NCBI GenBank assembly: GCA_044356455.1
Contig: JBIKWF010000006.1
Location: 4,477-68,476, forward strand
Length of the DNA: 64,000 nt
Reading direction: 5' to 3'
Origin: Bdellovibrionota bacterium
GTDB taxonomy: Bacteria; Bdellovibrionota_C; UBA2361; JBGSMV01
The notes under the pieces were generated by a model. The model searched no databases. It worked only from the letters and a program-made list of their open reading frames with translations, and had not been told where the DNA came from. Numbering within the stretch: the stretch's first letter is position 1; each line of letters starts with the position of its first letter. Below are positions 1 to 62,662 of the stretch, in pieces. The position numbers and the translations under genes are program-made.

Positions 1-682
1 CCTTACGAATCGCGCCATAGAGATCGCGCTCCAACCCCTGCGAAATAGCGACGACACCCGAACCTGGGCGTGAAGAGTTTGAATCTCCTTGGCCGCCGCC
101 AGGGGCATCCAGATAGAGCTGCACTTTAATCTGATCGGCGGAGATACCAGGCAGACCTTGAGCGAGCATTGATCGCACGTCTTCCTCTCGCACCGTGCTC
201 CCCTGCCGTACTCGCACAATTCCAGAAACTCCCGCCTGGGCTGCCCCTCCAAAGAGCTCAGACGAGGCTGAATTAAGCCGCACCACCACACGCGCCTGAC
301 TTATTCCAGGGTGATTCTGAAGGGCTTCCTCAAGCTCCGCGGCAAGCGCTCTATCAATACGTAGCGCTTCTACCTCACGAGAATCAGGCATGAGACCACG
401 CTGCGCCACCATCTCGCCAAAGGAACTGCGCGGCGCCGAAGGAAGCCCTAGCTCATGAAGCAAGGCCATGCCTTCAGAGTAGGAAGAGCGGCGTACCTCG
501 ACACGGTACTTCCCTCTCCCTCCGGTCTCCTTCTCTACCACGGCGCTAATTCCGCGGCTCACGAGCTCCGCAACAATCTCCCCTGCTTGGTCCTGCGTGA
601 GATCGTCGCGCAGCGTCACTGTGTTGCACCCACAAAGTGCAAGACACAGGAGAACAATCAGGAGGTAACGCAGAATTCGCAT
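1..682 (-). CDS. sctJ: T3SS inner-membrane ring lipoprotein SctJ/YscJ/EscJ/PrgK family; start ATG at 682, C-terminal end runs off the window start
   Basis: Manual reverse-complement translation gives MRILRYLLIVLLCLALCGC (lipobox) ... GEIVAELVSRGISA ... ELEEALQNHPGISQARVVVRLN, which matches the YscJ family pattern block for block. No stop occurs before position 1, which is why it is absent from the ORF track. Confidence 0.6.
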   Translation of the reverse strand, partial: MRILRYLLIVLLCLALCGCNTVTLRDDLTQDQAGEIVAELVSRGISAVVEKETGGRGKYRVEVRRSSYSEGMALLHELGLPSAPRSSFGEMVAQRGLMPDSREVEALRIDRALAAELEEALQNHPGISQARVVVRLNSASSELFGGAAQAGVSGIVRVRQGSTVREEDVRSMLAQGLPGISADQIKVQLYLDAPGGGQGDSNSSRPGSGVVAISQGLERDLYGAIRK

Positions 683-708
683 CGGGATATCCGTTTCCCT
701 TTTTACGG

Positions 709-2163
709 TTATTTAGCTCCAGGAGCCGTAATGAGGCATACCATAAACTCAATTTCACCAAGGCGCAGCCAGTCACCATGCTCAATCTTCACCGCGTCGG
801 TAACGCGCTGGAAACCTTCTTGTCCCTTGCGCTTAACCCACACGCCGCGATCGCTCATCAAGTCCTGAACTCTGAGCCCCTCTCCTACACCCACTGCGAC
901 GAGGGCATGAGGCGTCGAGATGGAAGGGTCATCCAGGACCACGTCATGCGGCTTTAAAGGCGAGCCAGTGAAGAAAAAGCGTCCCTCACGAAGCTCTGAG
1001 GCAGTCCCTCGAGGATCCGAGTAGCTTACAAGCCAACCAACAAGTCGGCCGGTATGCGCTTGAGCAAACTCAACATTGCCCTGGGATTCACGTCCCTGAC
1101 GCTGATCCCCTTGGCGCTGCTCACGAGGATGCTGTTCACGAGAGTGCTGTTCGCGGGCCTCGGGCCTGCGAGCGCCCTGAGAGGCAGCTGAAACTTGAGG
1201 AGAAGCGGTTGAGCGATCCGGTCGCTGATCGCCGCGAGCCTGTTGACCACGGCCTTCCTCTTGGCGAGAGGAGCTCTGCTGTGGAGATCTTCCCTGCTCG
1301 GAACGACCCTGCTCTTGGCGACTCTGTTCTTGGCGACCCTGCTCGGGTCGTCGCTGATCTTGGCGAGTCTCGGAGCGAGCGGCGCCTCCCGAGGGCGCAC
1401 TATTTCCACGGCTCTGCCGATCACGAGAAGCATTTTCACGCGGGCTTGGAACCTGAGTCCAACCACTTTCTTCACCCGCGGCACTTCCCGCTTTTGGCTC
1501 CTCTTCACGACCACGCCCGCTTCCGAACGAAAGGTTCGAAGGCTTGTTGGCCTTGCGCGGACCTGTCTCAATAATTACTCGAGGCTGAGCTTCCGCACTG
1601 CGCGGCTCCGTTGCTTTGGCCTCTGGAGCTACCGCAGTTGGTTCACGAGGCTTTTCAGCCGCGAGCGGCCGAGCCTCTTCGGCATGCGACGCGGAAGTAC
1701 CGTTACCCGCAGGCTCCTCAGCATCAATTTCTTGAATATAGGCACTGAGAGGATCATCATCTCGCTCTGACGCACTGGAAGAAGCAGCGCCAGAAAAGAG
1801 ACCTGCCTCCGCCCCAGACGAGTCGGCCACAGGAGACTCAGCCGCAGAAGCTGCCTCAAGCAGGGGTTCCGTAGCACCCAACCCCTCAGACTCCGCCGAT
1901 GCCTCAAGAGCACTTGCGCCCGTCTCGCCCGCCATCTCTTGGCGAATAAGACCGGCTGCTGCTGAAAGATCGCTACCTGAAACTGAGGTGGTTCTTTGCC
2001 GCACTCGTCCGCTCTTGGGAGAATCACGCGGCGGTTCGTCAACCTTCTGCGCAGCGGCATCAAGAGTCGCCCCGCACATACGGCAACGAGTAGAAACAGC
2101 CGGGACAAGACTACGGCACGCTGGGCAACGAACAAATGTTAATTCAGTGCTATCGGTTGACAT
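709..2163 (-). CDS. Protein with N-terminal zinc ribbon (CPACRSL...CRMCG), long disordered R/Q/E/S-rich repeat region and C-terminal FHA-like domain
   Basis: ORF track 484 aa. The Cys4 ribbon at the N-terminus, the QEQSRQEQGRSEQGRS-type repeats and the FHA-like C-terminus (GRFFFTGSPLKPHDVVLDD...) were read directly. Nested ORFs in other frames are judged spurious. Confidence 0.5.
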   Translation of the reverse strand: MSTDSTELTFVRCPACRSLVPAVSTRCRMCGATLDAAAQKVDEPPRDSPKSGRVRQRTTSVSGSDLSAAAGLIRQEMAGETGASALEASAESEGLGATEPLLEAASAAESPVADSSGAEAGLFSGAASSSASERDDDPLSAYIQEIDAEEPAGNGTSASHAEEARPLAAEKPREPTAVAPEAKATEPRSAEAQPRVIIETGPRKANKPSNLSFGSGRGREEEPKAGSAAGEESGWTQVPSPRENASRDRQSRGNSAPSGGAARSETRQDQRRPEQGRQEQSRQEQGRSEQGRSPQQSSSRQEEGRGQQARGDQRPDRSTASPQVSAASQGARRPEAREQHSREQHPREQRQGDQRQGRESQGNVEFAQAHTGRLVGWLVSYSDPRGTASELREGRFFFTGSPLKPHDVVLDDPSISTPHALVAVGVGEGLRVQDLMSDRGVWVKRKGQEGFQRVTDAVKIEHGDWLRLGEIEFMVCLITAPGAK

Positions 2164-2311
2164 AACGTCACTCCACCATTTCCTAAAAAAACCTTCTCTA
2201 CATAGGCACTAGAAGGCTTTGCTTCTTTTGCCTACAAACCTATTGCTTCTCAGATCCCTACTCAACTTGAACTTCTTACTACCTCGGGGAGACTCAAAAT
2301 CCCTCTTTCCT

Positions 2312-3655
2312 CTACCGCACCATTCCCCAAATCAAACTAAACAGCACCCCCGTTAAGACCGCAAATATGGCAAACATAAGGACCGCAATGAGGCGCCCCA
2401 CCACGGTAAGATTGCTGTAGTATTCAACCATGTACCCACCAAAGGACCCCTTACTTTCTGAGTCTTCAGGGGGGCGAATTCTACGAGCGCTTGACCCCTC
2501 ATACTTACGCTCCCCAGGTGCCTCAGCGCTTTTGACCGCCCTCTCCCCTGCGGGAGGAGGTTGAAAGGTGAAAAGCGCGCCGGAAGAGGCTGCGAACTCG
2601 CGCTCCTGAGACTCGTTGAAGCAAATTGCCACCGTCACTCCGCCACCGAAGTCGAATACACGCGGCGAGCCTGTAATCTGCATAATCTCGCCTTTGCGCA
2701 GGACACCCTGCTCATGTCCGGTTCCGTTGGTGCTCGTATCTTGAACGGTGAGAGCTCCCGTCTTGGACATGGCGATAGTGCAATGTCGGCGCGATACGTG
2801 AGGAGCTCCTAACCACATGTCACATCCAGGATCACGGCCCACCACGAGTGACATACCAGGAGCGAGTGCCAGACGTGCGGGACGCGCCACCTCTGAGGCT
2901 GAAGTAACTGCCGGATAGCGCCGCTCTGCTGAGGGGGAGCGTTTCGCTGGATCGCTTGTCGGGGTGATCGCCTGCTCAAGCTGCTCATGCGCAGCAACTC
3001 CAATCAGAGTTACCTCGCGCCCCAGAATAATGGGAGTGCCAGGCTGCACATTCATGCGGCCCGATATCTGCTGATGATTGACGAATGTTCCGTTCGTAGA
3101 TCCGAGGTCTTCAATCCAAAATTCTCCGCCCTCGTACCCAAGGCGCGCATGCTTCGCCGAGATATCTGCATTGTCGAGCCGGAGCGGGCACTGTTTTGAA
3201 CGGCCAATAAAGAGAGGTTGATCCGGAACGAAAGATACCACCATCGGAGGGGCCCCGCGTACGACTACGGCAGGAAACACAGGCCCTACGGAGCTGCACG
3301 ATTGCCGCAAGACTCGCACTCCTGCACGATCCGGAGGTTCTGTTTCGCGAAGGAGCAGATCAAAATCGAGCGCAGTTACATGCAAGCGCACCGAACCAAG
3401 ATCAATATCGGCTTCACCATCATAGGTGCCCTCAAGTACTGCAGGAAGCGTGGACTCATCGCCTGAGGAAGTTGGCTTGCAACGAAATTTGCGCCCGAGA
3501 TCGCGCACGAGCCGCAATTGGCAGCCGATCGCCTTCAGGTCCTCAACCACGACATGTGCGTAGTCAGAGGAACCCACCACCCCTTGCGGTCGGCGAATGA
3601 AGATCATCTCAGGCTGAGAGACTCCATCTTGGAAGCTAATCTCTAAGGCGAACAT
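2312..3655 (-). CDS. Multi-FHA-domain protein with C-terminal transmembrane anchor
   Basis: 447 aa. Two clear FHA cores (PLFIGRSKQCPLRLDNADISAKHARL...STNGTFVN and SLVVGRDPGCDMWLGAPHVSRRHCTI...STNGT) are followed by a hydrophobic C-terminal helix (LIAVLMFAIFAVLTGVLFSLIWG). Confidence 0.6.
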   Translation of the reverse strand: MFALEISFQDGVSQPEMIFIRRPQGVVGSSDYAHVVVEDLKAIGCQLRLVRDLGRKFRCKPTSSGDESTLPAVLEGTYDGEADIDLGSVRLHVTALDFDLLLRETEPPDRAGVRVLRQSCSSVGPVFPAVVVRGAPPMVVSFVPDQPLFIGRSKQCPLRLDNADISAKHARLGYEGGEFWIEDLGSTNGTFVNHQQISGRMNVQPGTPIILGREVTLIGVAAHEQLEQAITPTSDPAKRSPSAERRYPAVTSASEVARPARLALAPGMSLVVGRDPGCDMWLGAPHVSRRHCTIAMSKTGALTVQDTSTNGTGHEQGVLRKGEIMQITGSPRVFDFGGGVTVAICFNESQEREFAASSGALFTFQPPPAGERAVKSAEAPGERKYEGSSARRIRPPEDSESKGSFGGYMVEYYSNLTVVGRLIAVLMFAIFAVLTGVLFSLIWGMVR

Positions 3656-3961
3656 TAACCCTCGGTCGAACTAAACCTTCGCAAACTTATCGTGTCGACT
3701 CTATCTATCGGACGAAAACCAATAAAACTACTTCCTTGACCATATTTTAGAGTGAAAAGAAAAAATTCCGATCCACGTATTTACTAAGACACCACGTTTC
3801 AGTAACGCCGTTTCACTAAGTTTGGCATCGCAAATAGAATCCTATCATCGTACATAGTGAATAGAACTGCAGCCCCAAGCGAAGATACTGCATTTGGCAA
3901 ATGTGTTCACGCAGCACAGCTTGTCTTGGGTGGCTTGCCTGTTGCTTTGAGGAGCATCCCT

Positions 3962-4324
3962 GTGTCCAAAAAAATCTTAATTATCGACGACGATGTAACC
4001 GCCCTCGATATTGTTGACTTTCTCTTTGAGGACCAGGGCTTTGAAGTCGTACGCCGTGCGGACGGATTTGCGGCTCTCGAGTGCATTGAGAAGGAGCGCC
4101 CCGACGCGGTGCTGGTTGACTTGATGATGCCCCGCATGAACGGACAAGAGACCGTACGCCATATTCGCGGCAAAGGTATCAAGGTTCCTATTGTTGCGTT
4201 TACCGCCCTGGATGATCCAGAAGTCCACAAAGAAGCACGCGAAGCTGGGTGTGATCTCGTGCTCACCAAGCCCTGCAAACCTGCCGTTCTCGTGAAGCAT
4301 ATCGAAGAGTTACTTGCGCAGTAA
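3962..4324 (+). CDS. Single-domain response regulator (CheY-like receiver)
   Basis: KKILIIDDD...DAVLVDLMMPRMNG...KVPIVAFTA receiver motifs. GTG at 3962 is preceded by GAGGAG at a 7-nt spacing. The track ORF extends to a GTG at 3857 with no RBS. Confidence 0.6.
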   Translation: MSKKILIIDDDVTALDIVDFLFEDQGFEVVRRADGFAALECIEKERPDAVLVDLMMPRMNGQETVRHIRGKGIKVPIVAFTALDDPEVHKEAREAGCDLVLTKPCKPAVLVKHIEELLAQ

Positions 4325-4338
4325 CGCGCTGACTAATG

Positions 4339-4478
4339 CCGAGGGAACCCGTTAAAAACCCCCATTCTTAATAAACCTCTGCGTACCTCCGCGTCCTCTG
4401 TGGTGAATTTCTACATTAAAATTTCACCACAAAGGACACAGAGGTAAACAGAGGTGAATTCTTCAAAGATTCCCTAAG
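4339..4478. repeat. Nested-palindrome MITE-like intergenic element, copy 1 (degenerate left end)
   Basis: Core cctctgtggtgaatttctacattaaaatttcaccacaaagg flanked by ...ctctg / cagagg... arms, ending in tccctaag. It lies between the convergent genes at 4324 and 4474. Confidence 0.7.
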
Positions 4479-4794
4479 CTTCAAAGCGCAGGAAGAGCGC
4501 ACCGACGTTAACCTCATCTCCTTCTTTCAAAGCGAGAGGCTTGCCGCGCTCCACGCGTACAGTTCGATTGAGAAAGGTACCATTGAGGCTACCGAGGTCT
4601 TCCACCGTAACAGCATTTCCCGACACTCGAATCATTGCGTGTTTGCGAGAAATTTTCGCCTCTGTATCTTCCGCTTCGAGATCTATCTCTGGAAATGCCG
4701 CATCCTCGGGGTCCCAGCGACCTATCAGGTTGGTGCCTTCAACGAGTTCAAATTCCCTTCCCTTGGCACTCCCGTTCATAAGAACCAATCGCAT
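4474..4794 (-). CDS. Small FHA-domain protein
   Basis: MRLVLMNGSAKGREFELVEGTNLIGR...ISRKHAMIRVSGNAVTVEDLGSLNGTFLN. ATG at 4794 is preceded by GGAGGA. The track ORF is longer (to 4908). Confidence 0.65.
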   Translation of the reverse strand: MRLVLMNGSAKGREFELVEGTNLIGRWDPEDAAFPEIDLEAEDTEAKISRKHAMIRVSGNAVTVEDLGSLNGTFLNRTVRVERGKPLALKEGDEVNVGALFLRFEA

Positions 4795-5640
4795 GAATTC
4801 CTCCAGTAGAACGGCATTATATAAATAATCGCCTCTTCCACCTAAGATTCGACACAATGCGGCAGAGACTATAGAGGAACTGAACCGAACCGGCGCGCTC
4901 AGAATCAAATAAGAAGGGGGAAAGTTAGGCTACCGCTGGTGAGCCAGGGGCCGCAAAGGCACCTCTCCTAGAATTTTACAACGCTTATGTGCTAGGATTT
5001 GTTATAAATTTACGTCCTCTGGTGGATTGCTTGGCTCAGAAAAGCGCTCTCCTCTGTAGGACCATTTTTAATGATTTACATTTTTACTGGGTCTGCGCGT
5101 AACCTTCTGCCTGAACTTTTTGGTCAGCCGCTTGGTTCCGCAAGACTTCTTTAGGCCACATCAGAAGCGACTGTTTCTGAGCTGGGCCGGACGTTTGATT
5201 TGTAAGGGATAGTGCATCGTGTCGATGCCCACTAAAAACTTAAGAGCCTTAAAGGCACCATCTTCCCAAAGGGAGACGGTGAGTGAGAGCGCTCCTGCGT
5301 TTGAATCTTCTCATGGGTCCTCTTTAACGAGGAACCTGGGACGAATCGTGGGCGAAATTATCTGCCAAACTAGTAGCGGTACTCAGAATCACCTGGCTCG
5401 CACGCAAGATTCACGAGTGCTCATAGTTAGCAGGGACGCGCGTTGCCTTACTTCCCTTACACGCAGCTCTCGCCCTGCGCGAGAACAAGCAGTTCCCTCT
5501 TTCGATGTCCCACCAAGGCATCCAAAGTCGCAACTCTTTAATCATTCGCGTCCGATACTGCCCATGAGCATGCGTTCACGCAGCATGCTGAGCTCAGCTT
5601 CACGCGCCTCTGAGTGGTCCAATCGTGGAGGAAAATCTCG

Positions 5641-8122: not shown

Positions 8123-9195
8123 CCGGCAATGCAGAGAACTCGCATCTCTTTGAGGCTCTCGAGAATTTTCCCCACCCCTCGCACCACGCAGCTTAAAGGA
8201 TCGTGAGCGCGGTGAAACCGGATATGAGTCTCTTGCTCAAGGCGCTGGGCCAGCCCTTTAAGAAGCGAGCCGCCTCCTGCCAAGTAAATCCCACGTGCGG
8301 CAATATCATGCGCCACTTCGGGTCCCGTCTGCTCGAGTGCGGTATGAACAGAGGCGATAATTGCAGAGATAGGCTCTTCAAGCGCTTCGCGTACGAAATG
8401 ATCGTTTATCTCCAAACTCTTGGGTCGCCCGGTCTGAAGATCTCGACCAAACACCGTCGCGGAGCGTGCCTGCCCGAAAGGAGCTGCAGATCCGATAAGG
8501 AGCTTCACCCTCTCAGCTTCAAAAATCCCAACTTGGAGCCCCAGAGATCGCTGAAGATGGCGCTGAATAGCTTCGTCCATCTCATCCCCTGCCACTCGTA
8601 TCGAGTGTGAATAGAGCGTAGAATTCATGCTAATCACCGCCACGTCGGTGGTGCCGCCGCCGATATCGACAACCATGTTGCCGAAAGGCTTATCAACCGG
8701 AAGATCAAGGCCAAGGGCTGCCGCCATCGGCTCCTCCACGAGATGCACTTCGCCGCATCCCGAGGCAAGGGCCGCATCAATTACGGCGCGCTTTTCAACC
8801 TGGGTAATCTCGGGCGGTACTCCTATTACGATGCGAGGTCTTCTGATTGACCAGCCATGTTGCACCTGTGCAAGCATGTGCTTGATCATAAGCGTGGTGA
8901 TTGCAAAATCGGCAATTACCCCGTCCTTCATGGGACGTACGCAACGAACTGCCTGAGAAGTTTTCCCAAACATACGCTTCGCATCAACACCCACGGCCAG
9001 CGGCTTACCAGAATGCTCTTCGATAGCGACCATGGAGGGCTCATTCACCACCACCCCATAACCACGCAGATAAATGAGCGTATTTGCTGTCCCAAGATCC
9101 ATGGCGAGATCGCTCGCGGACCAGAGCGAACGAATGCGCTGCAATATGCCTGCATCTTGCAGACCTGCAGGAAGACTAAGCCCTACGGTAGCCAT
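8119..9195 (-). CDS. mreB: Rod-shape actin homologue MreB
   Basis: DLGTANTLIY...VVDIGGGTTDVAV... typical MreB/actin-fold motifs. 358 aa. Confidence 0.85.
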   Translation of the reverse strand: MATVGLSLPAGLQDAGILQRIRSLWSASDLAMDLGTANTLIYLRGYGVVVNEPSMVAIEEHSGKPLAVGVDAKRMFGKTSQAVRCVRPMKDGVIADFAITTLMIKHMLAQVQHGWSIRRPRIVIGVPPEITQVEKRAVIDAALASGCGEVHLVEEPMAAALGLDLPVDKPFGNMVVDIGGGTTDVAVISMNSTLYSHSIRVAGDEMDEAIQRHLQRSLGLQVGIFEAERVKLLIGSAAPFGQARSATVFGRDLQTGRPKSLEINDHFVREALEEPISAIIASVHTALEQTGPEVAHDIAARGIYLAGGGSLLKGLAQRLEQETHIRFHRAHDPLSCVVRGVGKILESLKEMRVLCIAG

Positions 9196-10687
9196 ATCCT
9201 ACTTCCCTTTCGAGGCGTAGAACCGCAGACGATGTGTTCGCCCCTGCCCCCGCCTGAGAACTTGTACCCACCGCTCCGCCCATAGATCCTGCGGCAGATC
9301 CCGCTGAAGATCCTCTCGCCTGCGCTAGCGAACTCCTAAGCTCAGCGGGTTCCATGCTCGTGAGCTGCACCAGCTCTTCAACCGTCGCAGTCTTACGGCG
9401 CTTATCACGCCCCCCCGCTTTTACAAACTCAAACTGCAGCGCTTCGACACTCGCGGAACCGGAACGCGAAAGATGATGCGCAGAAACCGCTCGAATTCGG
9501 CTCTCATAGAAAGAAATCATCATATTATCGAGCGCAATGACGATATCGCCGTTGGCAAGTCGCACACAGGGAAAGTGCGGAGGTAAAATCTGCTGCACGA
9601 TTCGATACACCTGCTCAACGGCAGTTAAGGCCGCGCTCGTACCCGAAGTTCTCTCGAGCTCATGAAAATTCGTGGGCACAATCCGCGTTATCTCGAGCGA
9701 TTGAATGCCCACTGAGCGAGAAAGCTCAGAGGCTCGCCTGAGGAAAGAATGCCATGCCACATCAGGGTGAGCCCGCCCCTGCTGCTCAACCAGTAGTCCC
9801 ACGGTACTACTTACCTCACGCGCAAGGTCCTCCAGGAGCTTTCCCTGCAGCTTAGAAAAGGCAAATGACTTCTTACTATCGCAGGCAAGCACTCCCGTGA
9901 GGTGCTCCTGCTCGGCGCCCGAGGAGGCCAACATGCCGTAGGTATCATCGAGACGGATGGGGATACCTATGAAGCTCTTGAGTTGCTGATCGGAGGAGTA
10001 AATGCCTAACGTGCGGCTATCGAGTTCAAAGGGTGAGACGTGAATAGACCGCGCGTGTTTCGCTACCCAACCCACAAGACCATTGCCGCGAGACACCTGG
10101 CTGTGAGGAATGACTTCCGGACATAGGGAGTGGAAACCCGCCAGGACCATAGTATCCGGTACGCCCTCTGGACCCACGAGGCTTGGATCGAGAGCTGCAA
10201 TTACGCTGGCGTGAAAAAAAACAAAGCAGCTATGGGCATCAGCGAGATTCGCCCCGAAGCGCGCCAGTCGACAAAGATCGGCGTAGCCACGCTGAGAAGG
10301 AGTACCTGAAAGGGGATTGGTAGAGGACGCAGCTTGAAAATGAGGCGCTGAAAAAGCTGCGCGGTTTTCAAAAAGTGCAGAGTCTTTGCTTGGAGCAGCG
10401 TCTTCTCTTGGAGCAGCATCTTCTCTTGGAGCAAAGCCAGGACTTCGAGATGCAGGGCCACTCGCGCGCGCAGCAGCGGAACTTGCCGCGGGAGCTTCGA
10501 GGCGAGATTTCAACTCTTGCTTGGCATTCGAAGCGTGGGGAGAAGCAGCGCTGCGGGTGTTCCCGCCAAAGGCCCCCACTCCCGTGGTAACAGAGGTGCG
10601 AGAAACAGGACTGCCTATGGGGGTGCTCCGCGGTGAATTACCCGCTTCCGCCAAGAGGCGCTCTCTCGCAGCAGCATCTTTGCTCAT
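9176..10687 (-). CDS. GAF-like domain protein with S/A-rich disordered termini, overlapping the mreB start
   Basis: The central region (CFVFFHASVIAAL...GWVAKHARSIHVSPFELDS...GIPIRLDDTYGMLAS) is GAF-like. ATG at 10687 has a weak AAGAGA RBS. The track TTG at 10753 has none. Confidence 0.4.
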   Translation of the reverse strand: MSKDAAARERLLAEAGNSPRSTPIGSPVSRTSVTTGVGAFGGNTRSAASPHASNAKQELKSRLEAPAASSAAARASGPASRSPGFAPREDAAPREDAAPSKDSALFENRAAFSAPHFQAASSTNPLSGTPSQRGYADLCRLARFGANLADAHSCFVFFHASVIAALDPSLVGPEGVPDTMVLAGFHSLCPEVIPHSQVSRGNGLVGWVAKHARSIHVSPFELDSRTLGIYSSDQQLKSFIGIPIRLDDTYGMLASSGAEQEHLTGVLACDSKKSFAFSKLQGKLLEDLAREVSSTVGLLVEQQGRAHPDVAWHSFLRRASELSRSVGIQSLEITRIVPTNFHELERTSGTSAALTAVEQVYRIVQQILPPHFPCVRLANGDIVIALDNMMISFYESRIRAVSAHHLSRSGSASVEALQFEFVKAGGRDKRRKTATVEELVQLTSMEPAELRSSLAQARGSSAGSAAGSMGGAVGTSSQAGAGANTSSAVLRLEREVGYGYRRA

Positions 10688-10965
10688 GAAATTCTCTTTG
10701 TCGTCGCCCTTAGAGGGTCCCTCGAGAGGCGCTACGACTTTATTGAAACCCAATAAAACAGGTGCTCAATAAAAAACGTAACAGAGTGAAGGACTTCCGA
10801 CAATGTGCTTTCTTTTAATCCGCTCTCGCGGAGAGATAGGAACCCGAGAGGAACTAGTCCTTCACGCGCGGGAGGGGGACGCGGAAATCCAGACCTATGG
10901 CTTGGGCGATCCTGACGTCACTGCATTGAGGCAAGGCTAGAAACTTGCGCGCAAATAAACTCCGA

Positions 10966-27221: not shown

Positions 27222-29840
27222 ATGATGGGCATCTTAAACTTCACCACTCGATTTCTCTTCGTCATTGCCTCGGCGTTCAGCCGGATAAGAGGAAAACTTG
27301 CTTTTTCTTCTCTGCTCCTTTTTGCCCTCTCTACAACGGCGAGTGCTCAACCAAGAATTTCATTCACCCTCGACTCAAGCTCACTCCATCATGTTCATCT
27401 CTTCAGCCTTCGCGGTGGATATGCATGCCTGGTGAGGCGTCCCGCTCAGCGAGCCAACCTGTTTGGCAGACTATCCCCTCCTCGCCTCGAAGTTGGCGCT
27501 CGCTTTAGACAAGTAGTGCAGCTCTCGAGCGCAAGCAAGACCGCCAAGAGGATTCGTGCTGCAAGGAAAGCTTGCCAAGCTATGAGCCGCTCTCCGTCGA
27601 CACCGACTCCGACTCCGACTCCGACTCCGACTCCGACAAAAACAGCCTCCCCAACTCCGACACAAGGATCAACTCCAATCCCAGCCCCCCCGCCTCCCGT
27701 GGCTATTTCTCACGTCGGCGACGCACCATCGACCGTTCTCGCCGGAAGCGCTCTTACCATACACGCTGAACTTCTCGACGAATCGGGTACTCGAACGCGC
27801 TTCCAGCCTGCGATCAGCACCGCTCTTGAGGTATTTGACAATGCTGGGATTCGCCTATCTTCGTCTCAACGCCAAGTAACTGATGGGCACACCAAGTTCA
27901 CCCTTAATGCTCCGCAGCATAGCGGAAGGTACCTCTTAAGACTCTCCTCCCGATCGCCCGACCTACTCCTCGAAACGGCTCTGGTGGTAAACCCCTTGCC
28001 CCTCCAGCGGATCATCGTAGCGGACGCTCTTGTTAGGTCCGTAGCCCTTCACGTGCCCTTTGAGGTTCAAGTGAGGGCTGAGGACCGCTACGGGAACCTA
28101 GTTACGGATGACATGCTTCGAATTCGTGTCGGCTCCGGCGATGCTCTCCTTGAGGGAGAGACCAGCGCCACACTTCATAACGGTAGTGCCGTTTTTCAAG
28201 GACTTAGATTCATCAAAGGTAGCGAGGCCCATCTTGTCATTGAGAATGCAGATCGCTCAGTCTCAACGAACGTCCCGCCTCTTACCATCGTATCGGGACA
28301 TACGACCGCATTAGCCTGGGACCCTCTGCCTACTGCTCCCCTGGGCAACTTGGCTCCCTGGTATCGACTACGTGAATGGACGAGCACGACCAATCCCCTT
28401 GCCTGCCAGACAAGTGCCTTCGATGCCGCCATTAAAGTGCGAGCTCAGGCGGCCAAGTTGCACACTGAGCAAATGCCCGAGGGCTTCCGAACTATTCTCT
28501 TTTTCTGGGAAATGACCCCAAGCTGGGAGGACCCGCGTGATACGGTACGAAACGCAGCAGGTGAGGTTCAGGGCTTTCGGGACGCTCACGGAACGTTTCG
28601 GCCTTACCTTAGCCCGTGGTGGGACAACGGGGCACTCGAGTCTCGCTGCCGTGTGGTGAAGTTCCTCGATGAGTTTCATCGACTTGGGGGAGTCCTTGAT
28701 TACGCTATCTTGGACACCGAGCGCTCCATGAGTAATTGGCACATGGATCTATTGGCAAGCGAACGTTACGGGGCGAACACCAGCCAGGTTTCCTCTCAGG
28801 TGGCCGAAGATCTCCGGCTTGCCTACTACGCCGCCATGGAGGCCGATCCGCGCATGGACCAGGTCGACTCGACTTCGTTTGGGTTCACCGACCTACGCCC
28901 CCTTCGAACCCAACTTAGTCAGGGCAGTCTCACGCAGCATGTCGCTCGTTGGAATTCGAGTGCCGTTCGTGACGGGCCACACCGCAACGCCTATCTGCAG
29001 TGGAATCAACTCATGCAGCAGCGTGCCACACGCTATAAGAATTTCGCCCTCTTTGAGCCACTTCGGGCGCGCTATCCAAACATTAAGTTGAGTGAATACG
29101 AGTCGTACCTCTCGATGCCGGAACACAACCTTCCTGACAGCAACGGCCATCAGGTTTCACTCTTTTCTGGCCCTGATCAAGAGGTAGTGGGAAACCTGCA
29201 GACAAAACCGCTCTACGGGGTACTCCGTGACTATGTCTTTTTCAACGTGCGCACCCCGCGTCTCATCTATCAAGGGACACCTTTTAATGCCATTCGTCTG
29301 AACCTGAACCATGTTCGAAGCGCAACCTTGACGCGTCCCGACATACCCTTTCAGCCCTGGTTTGCTTACCGAAGCTTTGGCTCGCAGCCCGCGGTTGACG
29401 CTTGTGCCAACTGCCGACTTGATGACAGCGATTACTACTTCGAGCTCGTCTATCACACCCTCCTCACCAGCACCGCCCCACCGCTCTTTTGGAACCCGGT
29501 CGGACTATCCACTGCCCCCGATGTTGAGGTCATGAGCGAGCTTCTGGTCGAGTATGATCGTGTCGCACGCCACTCAGTGAATCGAGAGCCAGCAGTGACA
29601 GACCTGATTGGTTGGGAGAAAGATTATGCTCTTAGCGCCGAGGAAACAGACTACGGGACGATCTATCGCTATACGCCGAAACTGGAGGAGAGTGCCTCGA
29701 TAGACACTCTAATTGAGTCCTACGAACCTGCCACACTCCGAACTCCCTCAGGCGAGCGTCTTCATTTCCCTCGCGGTCGCGTTGAACGCGATGCTCTTTC
29801 AGGGAAAGGAGCGTGGATTGTTGAGCGTCGCTACGACTGA
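27222..29840 (+). CDS. Large secreted protein: signal peptide, (PT)n linker, Ig-like region and C-terminal domain of about 500 aa of unknown function
   Basis: 872 aa. N-terminal hydrophobic signal ...STTASAQ. PSTPTPTPTPTPTPTKTASPTPTQGSTPIPAPPPP is encoded by a (CCGACT)6 tract at about 27598-27640. Confidence 0.55.
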   Translation: MMGILNFTTRFLFVIASAFSRIRGKLAFSSLLLFALSTTASAQPRISFTLDSSSLHHVHLFSLRGGYACLVRRPAQRANLFGRLSPPRLEVGARFRQVVQLSSASKTAKRIRAARKACQAMSRSPSTPTPTPTPTPTPTKTASPTPTQGSTPIPAPPPPVAISHVGDAPSTVLAGSALTIHAELLDESGTRTRFQPAISTALEVFDNAGIRLSSSQRQVTDGHTKFTLNAPQHSGRYLLRLSSRSPDLLLETALVVNPLPLQRIIVADALVRSVALHVPFEVQVRAEDRYGNLVTDDMLRIRVGSGDALLEGETSATLHNGSAVFQGLRFIKGSEAHLVIENADRSVSTNVPPLTIVSGHTTALAWDPLPTAPLGNLAPWYRLREWTSTTNPLACQTSAFDAAIKVRAQAAKLHTEQMPEGFRTILFFWEMTPSWEDPRDTVRNAAGEVQGFRDAHGTFRPYLSPWWDNGALESRCRVVKFLDEFHRLGGVLDYAILDTERSMSNWHMDLLASERYGANTSQVSSQVAEDLRLAYYAAMEADPRMDQVDSTSFGFTDLRPLRTQLSQGSLTQHVARWNSSAVRDGPHRNAYLQWNQLMQQRATRYKNFALFEPLRARYPNIKLSEYESYLSMPEHNLPDSNGHQVSLFSGPDQEVVGNLQTKPLYGVLRDYVFFNVRTPRLIYQGTPFNAIRLNLNHVRSATLTRPDIPFQPWFAYRSFGSQPAVDACANCRLDDSDYYFELVYHTLLTSTAPPLFWNPVGLSTAPDVEVMSELLVEYDRVARHSVNREPAVTDLIGWEKDYALSAEETDYGTIYRYTPKLEESASIDTLIESYEPATLRTPSGERLHFPRGRVERDALSGKGAWIVERRYD

Positions 29841-43594: not shown

Positions 43595-43759
43595 TCAATC
43601 ATTCTTTTCATTTAGCGGCAGCTGCGAAGCCTCCTCGTAAGCTCGTCGCCGCGCGGGCCAATACACCCAGGCAACTACCGCAACAAAAAACACAAGGAAG
43701 AAGACAAGAGCAAATTGAGCCCATACGGGATCAACGAGCCCCTGTATAAACCTACCCAT
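43595..43759 (-). CDS. ccoQ: Small membrane subunit CcoQ/FixQ-like (54 aa), not in the ORF track
   Basis: Manual translation gives [60 protein letters not shown] lies 5 nt upstream. It overlaps the ccoNO stop by 8 bp. Confidence 0.5.
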
Positions 43760-45959
43760 TTGATCCTCCCCCTACTCCTTGAGCAACTTGCTGCGAGGCA
43801 CCCGACTTAATGTCGGTGCCAAGGCGCTGCATATAGGCAATAAGCGCAATAATTTCCATGCCACTCTTGCCCTTCGCATCGCTCATCCCCTGGGCGCTGA
43901 GACCATCGGCTATGGCTTGAGCTTGGGTCTCAAGGTCAGCTACCGCATTCTTGATTTGCTCATCGCTATAAGGAACTCCAAGCAACTTCATGGCAGCAAG
44001 CTTTGAGGAGGTAAGCGAAGTGCTCAGCTCGTTCTCATAGAGCCATGGATACGCGGGCATAATGGAACCAGGACTCGTGGAACGAGGATCCATCATATGT
44101 CTCCAGTGCCACAGGTCTGGGTACTTGCGACCTACACGGTGTAGATCAGGCCCTGTACGCTTCGAGCCGAACTGGAACGGATGGTCATACACAAACTCAC
44201 CTGGCTTCGAATACTCCCCGTAGCGCACGAGCTCATCTCTAAAGGGCCTTACCATCTGCGAGTGACAGTTATAACAGCCTTCTCGGAGATAGAGATCGCG
44301 GCCCTCAAGCTCGAGCGCCGTATAAGGATGGACCGAAGCAATTGAGGGAACATTACTCTGCACGGCCACCATAGGCACGATTTCGACAATTCCTCCCACG
44401 AGAACTGCAAGCATCGTGAGTACCGAGAAGAGCACTGGCCGAGCTTCAAGGTTATGATGGAAGGTATTGAGCCAGCCACGATTCCCGCCGGTAGCATTGG
44501 GACTCTTCGTTTGCTGGATTGCACGCGGAACTTCAACCGCAACGTCAGAGAGAGAATGTCCCGCCGCCTTGGAGGCCTGAATCGTCTTGGCGACGTTATA
44601 GACCATCAAGAAAAGCCCCATAACGTAGAGCGTTCCTCCGAAGAGGCGAATCCAGTAGAAGGGAATAAGCTGCGTAACGGTTTCGATAAACTCGGGATAT
44701 TTAAGGAGGCCTTCAGGAGTGAACGCGCGCCACATAAGACCTTGAGTAATCCCACCGGTCCACATGGAGGTCATGTAAATTACAATTCCAAGTGTGCCCA
44801 TCCAGAGGTGCGCCGCCATGAGCTTCTTGCTCCAGACAGGAACCTTCCAGAGTTGTGGAAGAAGCCAGTAGAACATTCCAAAAGTAAGGAAGCCGTTCCA
44901 CCCAAGCGCACCACCGTGCACATGTCCGATGGTCCAGTCCGTGTAGTGAGAGAGAGCATTAACACTCTTAATTGACATCATCGGCCCCTCAAAGGTCGAC
45001 ATGCCGTAGAAAGTGATACCCACTACGAAAAACTTGAGAATCGGGTCATCACGAAGCTTATCCCACGCTCCGCGAAGCGTAAGGAGGCCGTTAATCATAC
45101 CACCCCACGAGGGAGCGATGAGCATTATGGAGAAGAGCGCTCCCGTGGTCTGTGCCCAATCAGGCAGCGAAGTGTTGAGAAGGTGATGGGGACCTGCCCA
45201 GATATAGAGGAAAATGAGGGACCAGAAATGGATAATCGAAAGGCGATATGAATATACGGGCCGCCCAGCTGCCTTAGGCATGAAATAATACATGAGACCT
45301 AGGAACGGCGTCGTGAGGAAGAAGGCTACAGCATTGTGGCCATACCACCACTGAACGAGAGCGTCCTGAACTCCTGCAAATACCGGATAGCTCTTAAAGA
45401 GCGCCACGGGAAGCGCCAAGGAGTTTACGATGTGAAGCATGGCCACGGTAAGAATCGTGGCGATATAGAACCAAATCGAAACATATATATGCTTCTCGCG
45501 GCGCTTAATGATCGTACCGAAAAGATTGGCACCAAAAACCACCCACACTAATGCGATGGCGATATCAATCGGCCACTCAAGCTCGGCGTATTCCTTGCCA
45601 ACAGTAATTCCGAGAGCCAGGGTAACCGCAGCTGATACGATAATGAGCTGCCATCCCCAGAAGTGGATCTTGCTGAGAAGGTCTGAAAACATCCTAGCGC
45701 GCAGAAGTCTCTGAGCTGAGTAGTAAACCGCGGCGAATATGGCGTTACCAGCGAAAGCGAAAATTACCGCATTGGTATGTATTGGCCTTAAGCGGCCAAA
45801 GGTGAGGAAGGAAATCCCCATGTTAAGCGGCCAATACGCGAGCTGGGCCGCAATAATAACCCCCACCAACATGCCCACTACGCCCCACACTATAGAGGCC
45901 AAAAGGAACATGCGGACTGACTTATCGTCGTATCGAATGGTTTCAGTTTGTGCGTTCAT
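43752..45959 (-). CDS. ccoNO: Fused cbb3 oxidase subunits I+II (CcoN-CcoO)
   Basis: 735 aa. Twelve or more TM helices with His ligands. The C-terminal CcoO part carries CYNCHSQ haem-c. Confidence 0.85.
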
Positions 45960-54850: not shown

Positions 54851-55001
54851 CCCTAAGCGTGGTTTAGAATCCAGATCTCACGCTCCTGGGCACCGCCTAT
54901 GAAACTCACTTCTGTGCGCCTCAGAGTCCTCCGAGGTGAATTTCTTCATGAAAATTTCACCTCGGAGAACACGGAGGTCAGTTTTTCAGAGTCTCCTTAG
55001 G
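54851..55001. repeat. MITE-like element copy 8 (degenerate)
   Basis: ...cctccgaggtgaatttcttcatgaaaatttcacctcggagaacacggagg...tttttcagagtctccttagg. Confidence 0.6.
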
Positions 55002-55821
55002 AAGCCTTGCTCTCCTCTAGAGAGCTTACCAAGGATCCTGTGGGGTAGGCGCCTGGCTTTTCAGTAGGCTTCTCAACGGCCCCCTCATTCCCCTGTTGGC
55101 TCGAACGCTTGAAGGCTTCGTTCAATAATTTCAAATCACTCTCATCCACTATCCCGTTCTTATCGAGATCTCCGGCGCTATCATCTGTTCCAAACTTACC
55201 AAGCAGAATCGCTAAATCAGCTCCATCAACGCCCGAGTTGCCGTCGAGATCTCCAAAGGTCCCCTTCTTCTCTTCGGGAACTCCAGGAGCATTCTTCTCT
55301 GTTGAACGTTTAAAGGCTTCGTTTAGAAGCTTCAGATCGCTCTCGTCTACCTTTCCGTTCTTATCAAGATCGCCTGCGCTATCTTCGGTTCCGAATTTCC
55401 CCAGAAGAATTCCAAGGTCGGCGCCATCAACTGTTGAATTTCCGTCCAAGTCTCCGAAGACCCCCTCTCTCTCTTTTGTGACTTCTGGCTTGCTGGAATT
55501 GCCACCGCTCACTCCAAGAGTAGGATCTTGCTCGCTTACAAGTCGCCTGCGGCGGTCATAGGTAGGTTTCGCTTCTTCGCTAAGGCGAATTCTTACAGGG
55601 TCTGATTTGGTTTCAGCTTCTGACCCAATCTTTGACTCGAGCCGCTTTGAAATACCCTCCGAAGTGAGCTTTGCCTCGGTAGTACGCTCTCGCAGACGCG
55701 CAAATGGTGAATTGCTGAGTTCTATTTTCATTCGGGTTCCCTCCCAAAGTAGTTTATTCCGTGAGATAGCCTCCGGTGGGCGACGGCGGCAGCGCTCCTT
55801 GCAAATGTGGTAACGACACAT
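54997..55821 (-). CDS. Protein with two tandem dockerin-type-I-like Ca-binding repeat modules
   Basis: GDLDGNS(T/G)VDGADL(G/A)ILLGKFGT(E/D)DSAGDLDKNG(K/I)VDESDLKLLNEAFKRS occurs twice, about 73 aa per unit. Confidence 0.5.
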   Translation of the reverse strand: MCRYHICKERCRRRPPEAISRNKLLWEGTRMKIELSNSPFARLRERTTEAKLTSEGISKRLESKIGSEAETKSDPVRIRLSEEAKPTYDRRRRLVSEQDPTLGVSGGNSSKPEVTKEREGVFGDLDGNSTVDGADLGILLGKFGTEDSAGDLDKNGKVDESDLKLLNEAFKRSTEKNAPGVPEEKKGTFGDLDGNSGVDGADLAILLGKFGTDDSAGDLDKNGIVDESDLKLLNEAFKRSSQQGNEGAVEKPTEKPGAYPTGSLVSSLEESKAS

Positions 55822-55908: not shown

Positions 55909-57819
55909 TTAGGCAAAGCAGCCCCTAATGCGCGGGGATAAGGTAATGGTCACATCAACGCTGAGATGTCTTATGTAGAGATTCGCGACTAAGTTCCCAT
56001 CGACTTCCTGTGAGGAAACTGGGAGATTTTCAAAGATAGGGGGCAATTTCTCAGGCAGATCACCCCGCCTTCGGATTGCCGAAAGGAGGCGATCAGCGAA
56101 CTTCATTCTTTCCGCTTTTTCGGCAGGTGACGGACCCTCTTCTTCCAACTCAGGCCACTCAATATTTATCTCCATACGATCGGGATACAAAATTTCCGAT
56201 TCAATAAGACCCGCGTTGGTGATGGTTGGGTCTTCTACTTCAAAATCAGGACTAGTATCGTACTCTTCCAAGGGATCTATCGGCTCATCGGAAGTTGGTT
56301 TGCCCTCATCGACTAAGGATTCCTCTTCTCCACTAAGGTCGGGGAAATCTGCGGCAACACCATAAAGTCTTAGAATCGGCCCGCCTCCACCTTTGGGAAG
56401 AATCTCAAGGTAGCGACTCAACTGCGCTTCCTGACCTGCATTTGAGACAAGAGTGGTTCCATGTTCAATCTTCCTCGAACCCTTAGCGCCAAGCACAAGC
56501 AGCGCTTCCTCGGAAAGCTCATCTCCCCGCAGAAGAAATCCGGCGATGTTAAGGCTGATTTTCTCGCTCTCTGAGACTCCAAAAACTGAGAGCGTCTTTT
56601 CAATATGCCTTGCGCGGGCGGCCTGGACTCTAAGGCCTAGAAGCTCAGCACTATCACGTCTCAAGTATTCTGATTCTCGCTCAGCCTTAATTCTCATCAG
56701 CAGATCATAATCTGCTTGAAGGGCATCAAGCGTCGTCTTAGGACCAACCGGGATCAGTAAGTCAGAGATTTCAATGAACGCCAGTTCTATTCCACTGTCA
56801 GGAGCATCAAAAACCTGCCTCGCCTCCTGAAGGAGTCCTTCGAGTTCTTCCCGCGTCCTGCCCTCAAGATCGAGGCTGGCGACCTCACAATGTCCGAATA
56901 GCTTCTTAAGAATGCTGATACGGTTGGATTCCAGCTCCTCAATCGAGCGAGTAATACAATACGAGAGCAGATCTGGCCGAGCGGCAAGGTGCTCATCGTA
57001 TAGATTAGATAAGGCACTCGGTTTTTCTGGCCCAAGATGAACCCAGATCTTGCCCTCAAGCAGCTCTATCCTGCTTCCCTGAGAGATTCCCTTTCGAGGC
57101 ACCTCGAGATCTAAATGTAGATCCTCTTGCGCCTCAAAGAGCACCTCAGTTACCGCGCCCAGTTCTTCCCACCTGTCAGGCTCAGATTTCAAGTGACGGG
57201 CAAGCTCCTCCTCCCAGACCAGTCTCACCTCGAAAAGATTTTCACTGTCTCCAATCGAGCACAAGATTCGCAGAGGAACAGAACTCGAATTAGCTCCAAA
57301 TCTAAATCCCTGACGAGTAATGAGTAAGTCTCTCCCGGAAGTAACGACCGCTGAAGCGCAGTACGCGGAAAGACTGATATCGGGCGCACATGGGTAGCTA
57401 AGCAGCACCTCGACTGGGTCGAGGGCTTCGCGCTTTTGGAGTTCCGAAAGAGTCCCATCAATAAGATTTCTCAGCTGCTCTGCATGCTCATCACTCAACT
57501 CGCCATGCTCCTGGGTCCCATACTGCAGGGCAGCATAAATTATGTTGATTGCCTCAATCTGGCTGCATGCCTCGAAGAGAACCTCATGCAAGGCAAAAGA
57601 GGCAGGTGAAAGCGCGAGGTTGGGATCCAGCTTATTCTGGCGTGGGGCCTGCCCATTCCTTGGAAGCGAAGTCCCGGAATCAGCGGAGGAGCGGCTCTCA
57701 GGTGCGGAACCATCTTTTGACGCAGGAGTATCCCTAGGAGAAGGCTCCGACGATTCTTCTGGATTCACTACAACCACCAGATCCAAGACGACAAATGGGA
57801 GGAGAATCCCTACCGCCAC
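55909..57819 (-). CDS. Large hypothetical protein (636 aa) with N-terminal hydrophobic segment
   Basis: Long clean ORF. No motif recognised. Confidence 0.5.
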   Translation of the reverse strand: MAVGILLPFVVLDLVVVVNPEESSEPSPRDTPASKDGSAPESRSSADSGTSLPRNGQAPRQNKLDPNLALSPASFALHEVLFEACSQIEAINIIYAALQYGTQEHGELSDEHAEQLRNLIDGTLSELQKREALDPVEVLLSYPCAPDISLSAYCASAVVTSGRDLLITRQGFRFGANSSSVPLRILCSIGDSENLFEVRLVWEEELARHLKSEPDRWEELGAVTEVLFEAQEDLHLDLEVPRKGISQGSRIELLEGKIWVHLGPEKPSALSNLYDEHLAARPDLLSYCITRSIEELESNRISILKKLFGHCEVASLDLEGRTREELEGLLQEARQVFDAPDSGIELAFIEISDLLIPVGPKTTLDALQADYDLLMRIKAERESEYLRRDSAELLGLRVQAARARHIEKTLSVFGVSESEKISLNIAGFLLRGDELSEEALLVLGAKGSRKIEHGTTLVSNAGQEAQLSRYLEILPKGGGGPILRLYGVAADFPDLSGEEESLVDEGKPTSDEPIDPLEEYDTSPDFEVEDPTITNAGLIESEILYPDRMEINIEWPELEEEGPSPAEKAERMKFADRLLSAIRRRGDLPEKLPPIFENLPVSSQEVDGNLVANLYIRHLSVDVTITLSPRIRGCFA

Positions 57820-62577: not shown

Positions 62578-62662
62578 AATCAACTACGAATTACGAGGGG
62601 TGCGCCGAGGTACTACCAAGGCGCACCTCTCACTCCCGATGGCGGAGACGTTGAATCGCTCC

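Follow-up and report, generated by a model that had tools for sequence, protein, structure and literature searches.

Genes at the start of the window

The stretch of DNA analyzed here, 64 kb of contig JBIKWF010000006.1 (positions 4,477 to 68,476) from a Bdellovibrionota bacterium and hereafter called the window, opens inside the gene of a lipoprotein of the type III secretion system (T3SS) family, which is preceded in transcription by genes for proteins with forkhead-associated (FHA) domains. An initial annotation, made from the sequence alone, had described five genes within positions 1-4794, and open reading frame (ORF) calls together with Pfam searches found all five there: a SctJ-like lipoprotein, two FHA proteins named here F0 and F3, a CheY-like receiver and a third FHA protein of 106 aa. 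The window start is the promoter-proximal end of a gene cluster conserved in uncultured Bdellovibrionota. In the window, 148 bases separate the F3 and F0 genes and 26 bases separate F0 from sctJ; this F3-F0-SctJ adjacency recurs in every locus seen, and the proposal that an FHA module is attached to secretion-system genes holds, with F3 and F0 as a fixed part of the cluster.

The gene of the SctJ-like inner-membrane ring lipoprotein (1..682, minus strand) has its start codon at 682 and runs off the window start, leaving inside the window the N-terminal 227 of the 309 residues that are encoded on an overlapping contig (L001, see below). The window part contains a signal peptide, a lipobox with Cys19, which is invariant across the aligned family, and YscJ/PrgK-type periplasmic domains, and the part beyond the window adds a conserved FLWFWRVP motif, one transmembrane helix and a basic cytoplasmic tail. 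Matches to PF01514 (the YscJ/FliF family; E = 1e-14, 54 bits) and to TIGR02544 (90 bits, under the equivalog cutoff of 162) span the full length of the protein. Furthermore, the family profile aligns end to end with PrgK/MxiJ at E = 2.5e-23, against E = 5e-4 for FliF. Thus, the lipoprotein is of the injectisome type and not flagellar, in agreement with its initial assignment to the YscJ/EscJ family. Across lineages, the SctJ proteins are about 30-50% identical.

F3 (2312..3655, minus strand) is a 447-aa tail-anchored triple-FHA protein, as indicated by Pfam, AlphaFold and homologue alignments. Pfam gives two FHA matches at 105 bits and a Yop-YscD_cpl match at 63 bits, and the AlphaFold model, built from 45 sequences with a mean predicted local distance difference test (pLDDT) score of 83, consists of three FHA-type β-sandwiches, a disordered linker and a C-terminal transmembrane helix. 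This is the protein for which two or three FHA domains and a C-terminal membrane anchor had been described, and the model gives three FHA-type folds. Domain 1 (residues 1-95; 3371..3655, minus strand; pLDDT about 81-90) is missed by the Pfam FHA model and lacks the Gly-Arg pair, and its His34 is nearly invariant. Domain 2 (residues 129-220; 2996..3271, minus strand) and domain 3 (residues 249-345; 2621..2911, minus strand) are canonical FHA domains by Pfam, AlphaFold and alignments. The residues G151-R152, S166...H169 and S186-T187-N188-G189-T190 of domain 2 are invariant or nearly so, and G273-R274, S288-R289...H291 and S308...N310-G311 of domain 3 are invariant; both domains retain all phosphothreonine-contact residues and are predicted to bind phosphothreonine. 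In structure comparison, the top match of F3 is the FHA domain of chlamydial CdsD, which scores only marginally over other FHA domains.

The transmembrane tail anchor of F3 (residues ~418-446; 2318..2404, minus strand) is modeled as a helix with pLDDT > 90, and the disordered linker that precedes it, about 50 residues long here, extends to about 300 residues in relatives. A hydrophobic C-terminus is present in all 14 aligned members of the family. Longer members (500-693 aa) differ by a longer disordered linker only, and all eight of those inspected end in a transmembrane helix; among about 140 listed representatives, no periplasmic domain was found in the 14 aligned and eight longer members inspected. 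The family is large, with at least 539 homologues, of which the best 120 are all about 445 aa long, and at 50% identity it forms 252 clusters with E < 1e-30. Of the 150 representatives listed, about 140 are family members, either full-length or fragments, and the full-length ones match from profile position 1 through all three FHA domains. The mean column identity is 57-58%, with many invariant functional residues.

F0 (709..2163, minus strand), a 484-aa cytoplasmic protein encoded directly upstream of sctJ, is composed of a zinc ribbon, a long disordered region rich in Ser/Thr, Gln and Arg, and a degenerate C-terminal FHA domain. The zinc ribbon (residues 8-35, CPxC...CRxC; 2059..2142, minus strand) is evident from invariant columns and from an AlphaFold model with pLDDT of about 85-88. 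A conserved GRVRQ(K/R)T motif comes next, and its invariant Thr58 is a candidate phospho-acceptor. The C-terminal FHA-fold domain (residues 372-480; 724..1050, minus strand), recognized by a weak FHA match and by AlphaFold, keeps the Ser-x-x-His element (S416, H419) and has Thr-Gly-Ser in place of Gly-Arg and Arg-Gly in place of Asn-Gly. The zinc ribbon, the disordered low-complexity region and the FHA-like domain had all been recognized in the initial annotation, although the last of them lacks the conserved Gly-Arg. Pfam hidden Markov models (HMMs) confirm FHA domains in F3 and in the 106-aa protein, and weakly in F0. Homologues of F0 number 332, the best 120 all of the same architecture, and the protein is present in every related locus that covers its position. 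Its mean column identity is 28-36%, with many invariant functional residues, fewer than in F3.

The cluster in related genomes

L001 is an 11.7-kb public contig, found via F0, that overlaps the window and reaches 3,665 bases beyond its start; a look-up of identical F3 proteins for a longer copy of the window contig returned this same contig only. Leftward of sctJ, it carries a 73-aa gene, a 104-aa coiled-coil gene and a 341-aa SctQ-like gene. The SctQ-like protein has two SpoA (FliMN_C) domains, a weak match to TIGR02551 and a match to YscQ-C in the PDB at E = 4.8e-5. After it, positions 9828-11675 of L001 contain a 136-aa membrane protein and short ORFs that by eye resemble transposase fragments, and then the contig ends.

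A scan for the SctJ-like family with one genome per species gave 21 loci, all in uncultured metagenome genomes, labeled Bdellovibrionota, Bdellovibrionales or Deltaproteobacteria, plus two Pseudomonadota and three "bacterium". Gene maps of the loci were drawn from protein clustering and family HMMs. In loci of the window's type (type A), the order is MreB, a GAF protein, RNase G, the cluster boundary, the 106-aa FHA protein (in some), the receiver (in some), F3, F0, SctJ, a 74-aa protein, a coiled-coil protein, SctQ and, in some loci, a DUF3313 lipoprotein, followed by SctR, SctS, a membrane protein of about 185 aa (presumed SctT), SctU-N, a protein of 85-100 aa and a 145-aa tetratricopeptide repeat (TPR) protein. 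All 14 genes of the type A locus are present in a closed 2.28-Mb genome, CP129486.1. F3, F0, SctJ, the 74-aa protein, the short coiled-coil protein and SctQ form the constant core, and the part from SctR to the TPR protein is usual; the SctR-to-SctU block is directly adjacent in most loci, and displaced or not seen in L001, L003/L012, L007, L020 and L022.

SctR (72 bits, cutoff 208) and SctS (22 bits, cutoff 76.5) are recognized in most related loci, and the presumed SctT has no HMM match. With NCBIfam and Pfam models, SctR, SctS and SctU-N match the Sct models slightly better than the Fli models, and all Sct matches are far under the NCBI equivalog cutoffs. The expectation that a T3SS cluster extends leftward is thus supported by the SctQ-like protein on L001 and by SctR, SctS, a SctT-like protein and SctU-N in relatives, although no full injectisome cluster is adjacent. 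The genes sctC, sctN and sctV, which had been expected there, did not appear: with maps covering about 10 kb on each side, about 25 type A loci contain no SctV, SctN, secretin, needle or true SctD, and about 35 loci of type A and of a second type (type B, see below) contain no SctC secretin and no SctF needle.

The SctU-like proteins are 190-230 aa long, match positions 3-223 of the 341 positions of TIGR01404 and stop at the MTREE linker. This end was read directly in L002 and L026, and the length of the others fits with it; judged by these sequences, the autocleaving cytoplasmic switch domain is missing. The small protein encoded after SctU-N was considered as a split-off C-terminal domain of SctU and rejected, as inspection revealed no NPTH motif. 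Other small proteins of the cluster were likewise not assigned. The 74-aa protein, considered as a relative of the FliG N-terminal domain, gave nothing significant in a PDB profile search and nothing with Pfam or NCBIfam, and the coiled-coil protein, considered as SctL or SctO, gave generic coiled-coil matches only. The TPR protein, considered as an LcrH-type chaperone, reached E values of only about 0.07-0.09 with NCBIfam and retrieved generic TPR proteins in a PDB profile search.

The many absences raise the question whether the cluster is a decaying remnant of a T3SS whose machine is no longer built. The missing core genes nearby, the truncated SctU, the short SctT-like protein and the insertion-sequence-like debris after the cluster in the window's genome would fit with this view, as would the SctV of L028, one of the sister loci described below, which is reduced to a weak partial match. 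Nevertheless, we consider it highly improbable. The ORFs are intact and keep the same order even between lineages with no more than about 30-50% identity in SctJ, the families have hundreds of members, and F3, and to a lesser degree F0, retain many invariant functional residues. Moreover, the recurrence of the same truncation of SctU indicates a fixed design and not random decay.

Some type A loci carry additional genes close to the cluster. A few kb past the TPR gene, L010, L015 and L019 contain a FliA/WhiG-like sigma factor (weak NCBIfam match) and two conserved proteins of about 200 and 350 aa without a family match; it is possible that these are a regulator and substrates of the system. 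In one lineage (L012, 13418-17969), genes are inserted between sctQ and sctR that encode a GH3/SpoIID-domain protein, which may hydrolyze the cell wall, as well as an AmiA-like protein and an AAA+ ATPase with pentapeptide repeats.

Sister lineages with Tad genes and SctV

Type B loci were found via distant F3 relatives and by a metagenome scan with a kinase-like protein. Their gene order is RcpC, TadA, TadB, TadC, SctV, the kinase-like membrane protein, F3, F0 and SctJ, followed by the 74-aa protein, the coiled-coil protein and SctQ. This order from Tad to SctQ was seen in L028, L030/31, L033 and L037, and only in L028 is the block preceded by a TadZ-like ATPase and a Flp pilin. L032 and L034 begin at SctV and show the SctV-pseudokinase-F3 part only, and L011 shows the C-terminus of the kinase-like protein. 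Outside L028, the type B SctV is a full-length FHIPEP protein (565-599 bits), encoded two genes upstream of F3 with the kinase-like gene in between, and a full-length FHIPEP protein is also encoded in the split locus L036 described below. Searches of the window and of L001 with tblastn found neither Tad nor kinase-like genes.

The kinase-like protein is a membrane protein of 830-884 aa with an N-terminal kinase-like domain and C-terminal HEAT repeats, and its gene always lies between those of SctV and F3 (L028, L030/31, L032, L033, L034, L037). The alignment indicates that the kinase-like domain lacks the β3 Lys and the DFG Asp; thus, the protein is probably a pseudokinase, specific to this system.

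L036 (JGI contig Ga0163144_10000460, 94 kb) displays a different arrangement, in which TadZ-RcpC-TadA-TadB-TadC-SctV-pseudokinase is present with no FHA/SctJ block, and the operon is directly followed by ahpC, a prolyl oligopeptidase and tig-clpP-clpX-lon. Accordingly, the Tad/SctV genes and the FHA/SctJ/SctQ genes need not share a locus, which makes it plausible that type A genomes, including that of the window, keep SctV at a second locus.

Separable blocks would also fit an ordinary injectisome whose genes are dispersed in the genome, like those of Chlamydia, and which is directed against eukaryotic hosts; the initial annotation had likewise taken the genes for part of a T3SS. The genes sctC, sctD, sctF, sctN and sctV and those of the translocators would then lie elsewhere in the genome, and at least one related metagenome contig indeed encodes SctV apart from the FHA block. 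SctJ, SctQ, SctR, SctS and SctU-N are indeed of the Sct type, the terminal TPR protein has a very weak similarity to LcrH/SctY, and the FHA domain of CdsD heads the structural matches of F3. Opposed to this are the cut of SctU exactly at the start of the cytoplasmic switch domain, the Sct matches far under equivalog cutoffs, and the fact that SctV, where linked, belongs to a Tad operon instead of an injectisome cluster. In addition, no secretin, needle, SctD or SctN occurs in about 35 loci, and the hosts are Bdellovibrionota, so that a split injectisome appears unlikely.

A proposed reduced secretion system with FHA proteins as components

We moderately favor the reading that the product of the cluster is a reduced relative of the T3SS, apparently devoid of needle and secretin, in which the FHA pair F3 and F0 are built-in platform and regulatory parts. 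In this machine, SctJ would form the inner-membrane ring around a gate made of SctR, SctS, SctT and SctU-N, and F3 would assume the cytoplasmic role of the missing SctD. To this end, the tail anchor of F3 would hold its three FHA domains below the ring, where they would dock the SctQ platform. Because the canonical FHA domains of F3 keep their phosphothreonine-contact residues, this docking would probably be switched by Ser/Thr phosphorylation. The likeliest phosphorylated target would be F0, at the invariant Thr58 in GRVRQKT or within the Ser/Thr-rich disordered region, and F0 may in turn bridge, through phospho-Thr58 or the disordered region, to the SctQ platform, with a Ser/Thr kinase encoded elsewhere gating the assembly. 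The 106-aa FHA protein and the CheY-like receiver would act as lineage-specific extra inputs. By analogy with Myxococcus, the machine would probably work with a Tad/Kil-like pilus in contact-dependent attack of prey. The loss of the SctU switch domain fits a system that does not switch from needle to effector substrates.

The position of the F3 gene upstream of sctJ, which is the site of sctD in several injectisome clusters, is one of the arguments for F3 as a surrogate of SctD, the others being its tail anchor and the lack of any genuine SctD. Several observations weigh against the assembly proposed above, the first being that no sequence or structure result sets F3 nearer to SctD than to generic FHA proteins. 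Furthermore, the F3 linker is disordered and varies from 50 to 300 residues, which suits a tethered adaptor better than a rigid ring component. As to the secretion apparatus, tblastn did not find sctR/S/T/U or sctV in the window or in the 3.7-kb extension on L001, which ends 1.9 kb past sctQ in insertion-sequence-like debris; sctN and secretin genes were not among the scanned ORFs of the window and L001, with no search aimed at either, and a SctN ATPase was seen in no locus of either type (about 35 loci). The cluster has no linked gene for an active kinase or phosphatase, and the kinase-like protein encoded next to it in sister lineages is devoid of the two catalytic residues noted above. Finally, the role in predation is proposed by analogy only, and all carriers are uncultured.

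The flexible linker leads to a different explanation, namely, that the FHA proteins are pure signaling adaptors that relay Ser/Thr phosphorylation, for instance upon prey contact, and are not stand-ins for SctD. They would be akin to T6SS Fha1 of the PpkA/PppA pathway (T6SS being the type VI secretion system) or to the FHA proteins of Kil clusters, and would switch the assembly of the Tad-like machine, of the T3SS-like machine or of both, while the SctJ ring would need no SctD equivalent. In this regard, FHA domains with intact phosphothreonine-binding residues resemble those of regulatory proteins such as GarA/OdhI and FhaA, and the long disordered region of F0 adds to the flexible linker of F3. 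Moreover, in the sister loci the pair sits between the kinase-like protein plus Tad genes and sctJ, and the Kil cluster also has FHA proteins and a kinase-like protein by its Tad platform genes. On the other hand, F3 and F0 stay with sctJ-sctQ when the two blocks separate, as in all type A loci and in L036, and the membrane anchor together with the invariant order by sctJ suggests a stoichiometric partner. The adaptor explanation, which we hold as a tentative possibility, also overlaps with the reading of F3 and F0 as built-in parts, for regulation and docking are not exclusive.

Accessory genes and the remainder of the window

The CheY-like single-domain receiver (3962..4324, plus strand) is 120 aa long and matches PF00072 at 92 bits; its longest ORF starts at 3857. 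The D9-D11 acidic pocket, D53, T81 and K103 are invariant in seven orthologues. The gene is found in about 10 of the 16 related loci that cover its position and hence in part of the clade only; no chemotaxis genes lie near it, and no partner histidine kinase was identified. It lies on the opposite strand to the other four genes, divergent from F3 and convergent with the 106-aa FHA gene, which excludes a single transcription unit for all five. The receiver that the initial annotation had included in the module is present as a lone gene and shares no operon with the FHA proteins.

The 106-aa stand-alone canonical FHA protein (4474..4794, minus strand) has the size initially described and is confirmed by a PF00498 match at 55 bits, and its residues G25-R26, S49-R50-K51-H52 and S69...N71-G72-T73 are invariant in the alignment. 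Its gene occurs in about five of the 14 loci covering the position, that is, in L001, L002, L007, L026 and L027 only. The next 800 bases or so, between this gene and that of RNase G (4795-5613), are gene-free, with no Rfam match and no reported promoter-like or terminator-like site; indeed, promoter, terminator and Rfam scans of the region gave nothing above background.

The rest of the T3SS was sought in the window by a Pfam scan that took in every ORF of 150 aa or more not contained in a longer one, and housekeeping functions only were found, including RNase G, MreB, ComEC, S-adenosylhomocysteine (SAH) hydrolase and cbb3 oxidase. The same scan of the 64-kb window revealed no Hanks-type kinase, for which a phosphothreonine-dependent module would give reason to look, and neither the window nor the related loci contain T6SS genes. 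The sole RNA gene in the window is a tRNA-Thr. A GAF-domain protein (9176-10753, minus strand) is encoded between mreB and the RNase G gene and is kept in nearly all type A loci, which indicates that the MreB-GAF-RNase G block always borders the cluster.

Elsewhere in the window, a 544-aa protein (35490-37124, minus strand) has a calpain-family cysteine protease domain and an EF-hand, a combination that is unusual for a bacterium, and a 274-aa protein (54997-55821, minus strand) has a type I dockerin domain. CcoN and CcoO of the cbb3 oxidase are fused in one 735-aa ORF (43752-45959, minus strand), adjoined by FixG/FixH-type assembly genes. Large ORFs of 368-872 aa without a Pfam match at E <= 0.001 are located at 27222-29840 (plus strand), 31260-33850 (minus strand), 55909-57819 (minus strand) and 61471-63979.

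Comparison with known systems

In the paper library searched, no description of a T3SS or injectisome in Bdellovibrionota was found, nor any mention of the genome accessions. Among the systems of other bacteria, the flagellar switch offers a parallel for the receiver: as with CheY and the FliM/FliN C-ring, a receiver with all phospho-acceptor residues is encoded next to a cluster containing a protein of the FliM/FliN family (SctQ). However, the SctQ-like protein has no FliM-type N-terminal CheY-binding motif that is evident by visual inspection, and the receiver is absent from about one-third of the loci.

The FHA proteins had been compared initially with those of the chlamydial T3SS and of the T6SS. 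Like T6SS Fha1/TagH in the PpkA/PppA pathway, they could represent FHA proteins that gate the assembly of a secretion machine upon contact, but TIGR03354 covers the generic FHA domain only (62.6 bits against a cutoff of 120), and gene content, devoid of T6SS genes, does not support this half of the analogy. The chlamydial half fared better, with CdsD as the marginally top structural match.

SctD proteins (YscD/PrgH/MxiG/EscD) share with F3 a cytoplasmic FHA fold, a single transmembrane helix and a gene near sctJ. The FHA folds of SctD are generally degenerate, and the chlamydial ring protein CdsD keeps a YscD-like periplasmic C-terminal part. F3 differs in having three FHA domains, two of them with intact phosphothreonine pockets, and in placing its helix at the extreme C-terminus, with no periplasmic ring-building domain, and it is closer to regulatory FHA proteins than to SctD. 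The presence of canonical FHA domains on a T3SS membrane component is a feature shared with CdsD (CT664), although F3 is without the periplasmic part and no catalytically intact kinase is linked to its gene. PknD phosphorylates CdsD, an FHA-containing ring protein of the chlamydial T3SS, which provides a precedent for control of the T3SS basal body by a Ser/Thr kinase (PMC2765968). A tail-anchored FHA protein in place of the degenerate FHA fold of SctD would suggest an ancestral or alternative mode of assembly gated by phosphorylation.

The closer parallel, by analogy of gene content, appears to be the predation pair of Myxococcus, composed of the needle-less T3SS* and Kil. In M. xanthus, T3SS* is devoid of secretin and needle, gathers together with the Tad-like Kil system where the cell touches its prey and is needed for prey lysis; its reported parts are SctD, SctJ, SctI, SctQ, SctRSTUV, SctN, SctL and LcrH-like chaperones (PMC10433427). 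Kil clusters are rich in FHA proteins, among them one that is PrgH-like and an FHA/TPR protein resembling kinase G, both encoded next to the Tad platform genes, and Kil-like systems occur in Bdellovibrionales (PMC8460266). Like the Myxococcus pair, the cluster described here combines inner-membrane and cytoplasmic parts of a T3SS, apparently without secretin or needle, with a TPR protein (LcrH-like in Myxococcus), many FHA proteins and, in sister lineages, an association with a Tad-like pilus and a kinase-like protein by the Tad genes, and the hosts of both are predatory former Deltaproteobacteria. The differences are also marked. T3SS* is reported to have SctD, SctI, SctL, SctN, SctV and a full SctU in one cluster, whereas here SctD, SctI, SctL and SctN were not found, SctU has no cytoplasmic domain, and SctV, where linked, lies inside the Tad operon. 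Conversely, the Kil and T3SS* clusters are unlinked in Myxococcus and contiguous in the sister lineages reported here.

How a T3SS without needle and secretin moves anything and cooperates with Kil is an open question in the study of predation. The two gene sets, contiguous in several lineages and with SctV adjoining the Tad platform genes in the same orientation, are independent genomic support for a physical or functional coupling, and SctJ, SctQ, SctR, SctS, the SctT-like protein and SctU-N without SctD are a natural minimal system for its study. The assignments would also aid the annotation of hundreds of entries named "FHA domain-containing protein" in metagenome genomes of Bdellovibrionota.

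A bolder interpretation, which we regard as doubtful at present, is that of a third type III design, next to flagella and injectisomes, that joins a minimal T3SS-derived gate and a Tad pilus machine into one unit for killing prey upon contact. The gate would consist of the SctJ ring, SctR/S/T, the switch-less SctU and the SctV of the Tad operon, and the machine would have no SctD, dedicated ATPase, secretin or needle. Its platform would be recruited via the tail-anchored phosphothreonine-binding FHA proteins under the membrane pseudokinase. If true, such a hybrid would be the genetic proof of the Kil-T3SS* coupling that is only suspected in Myxococcus.

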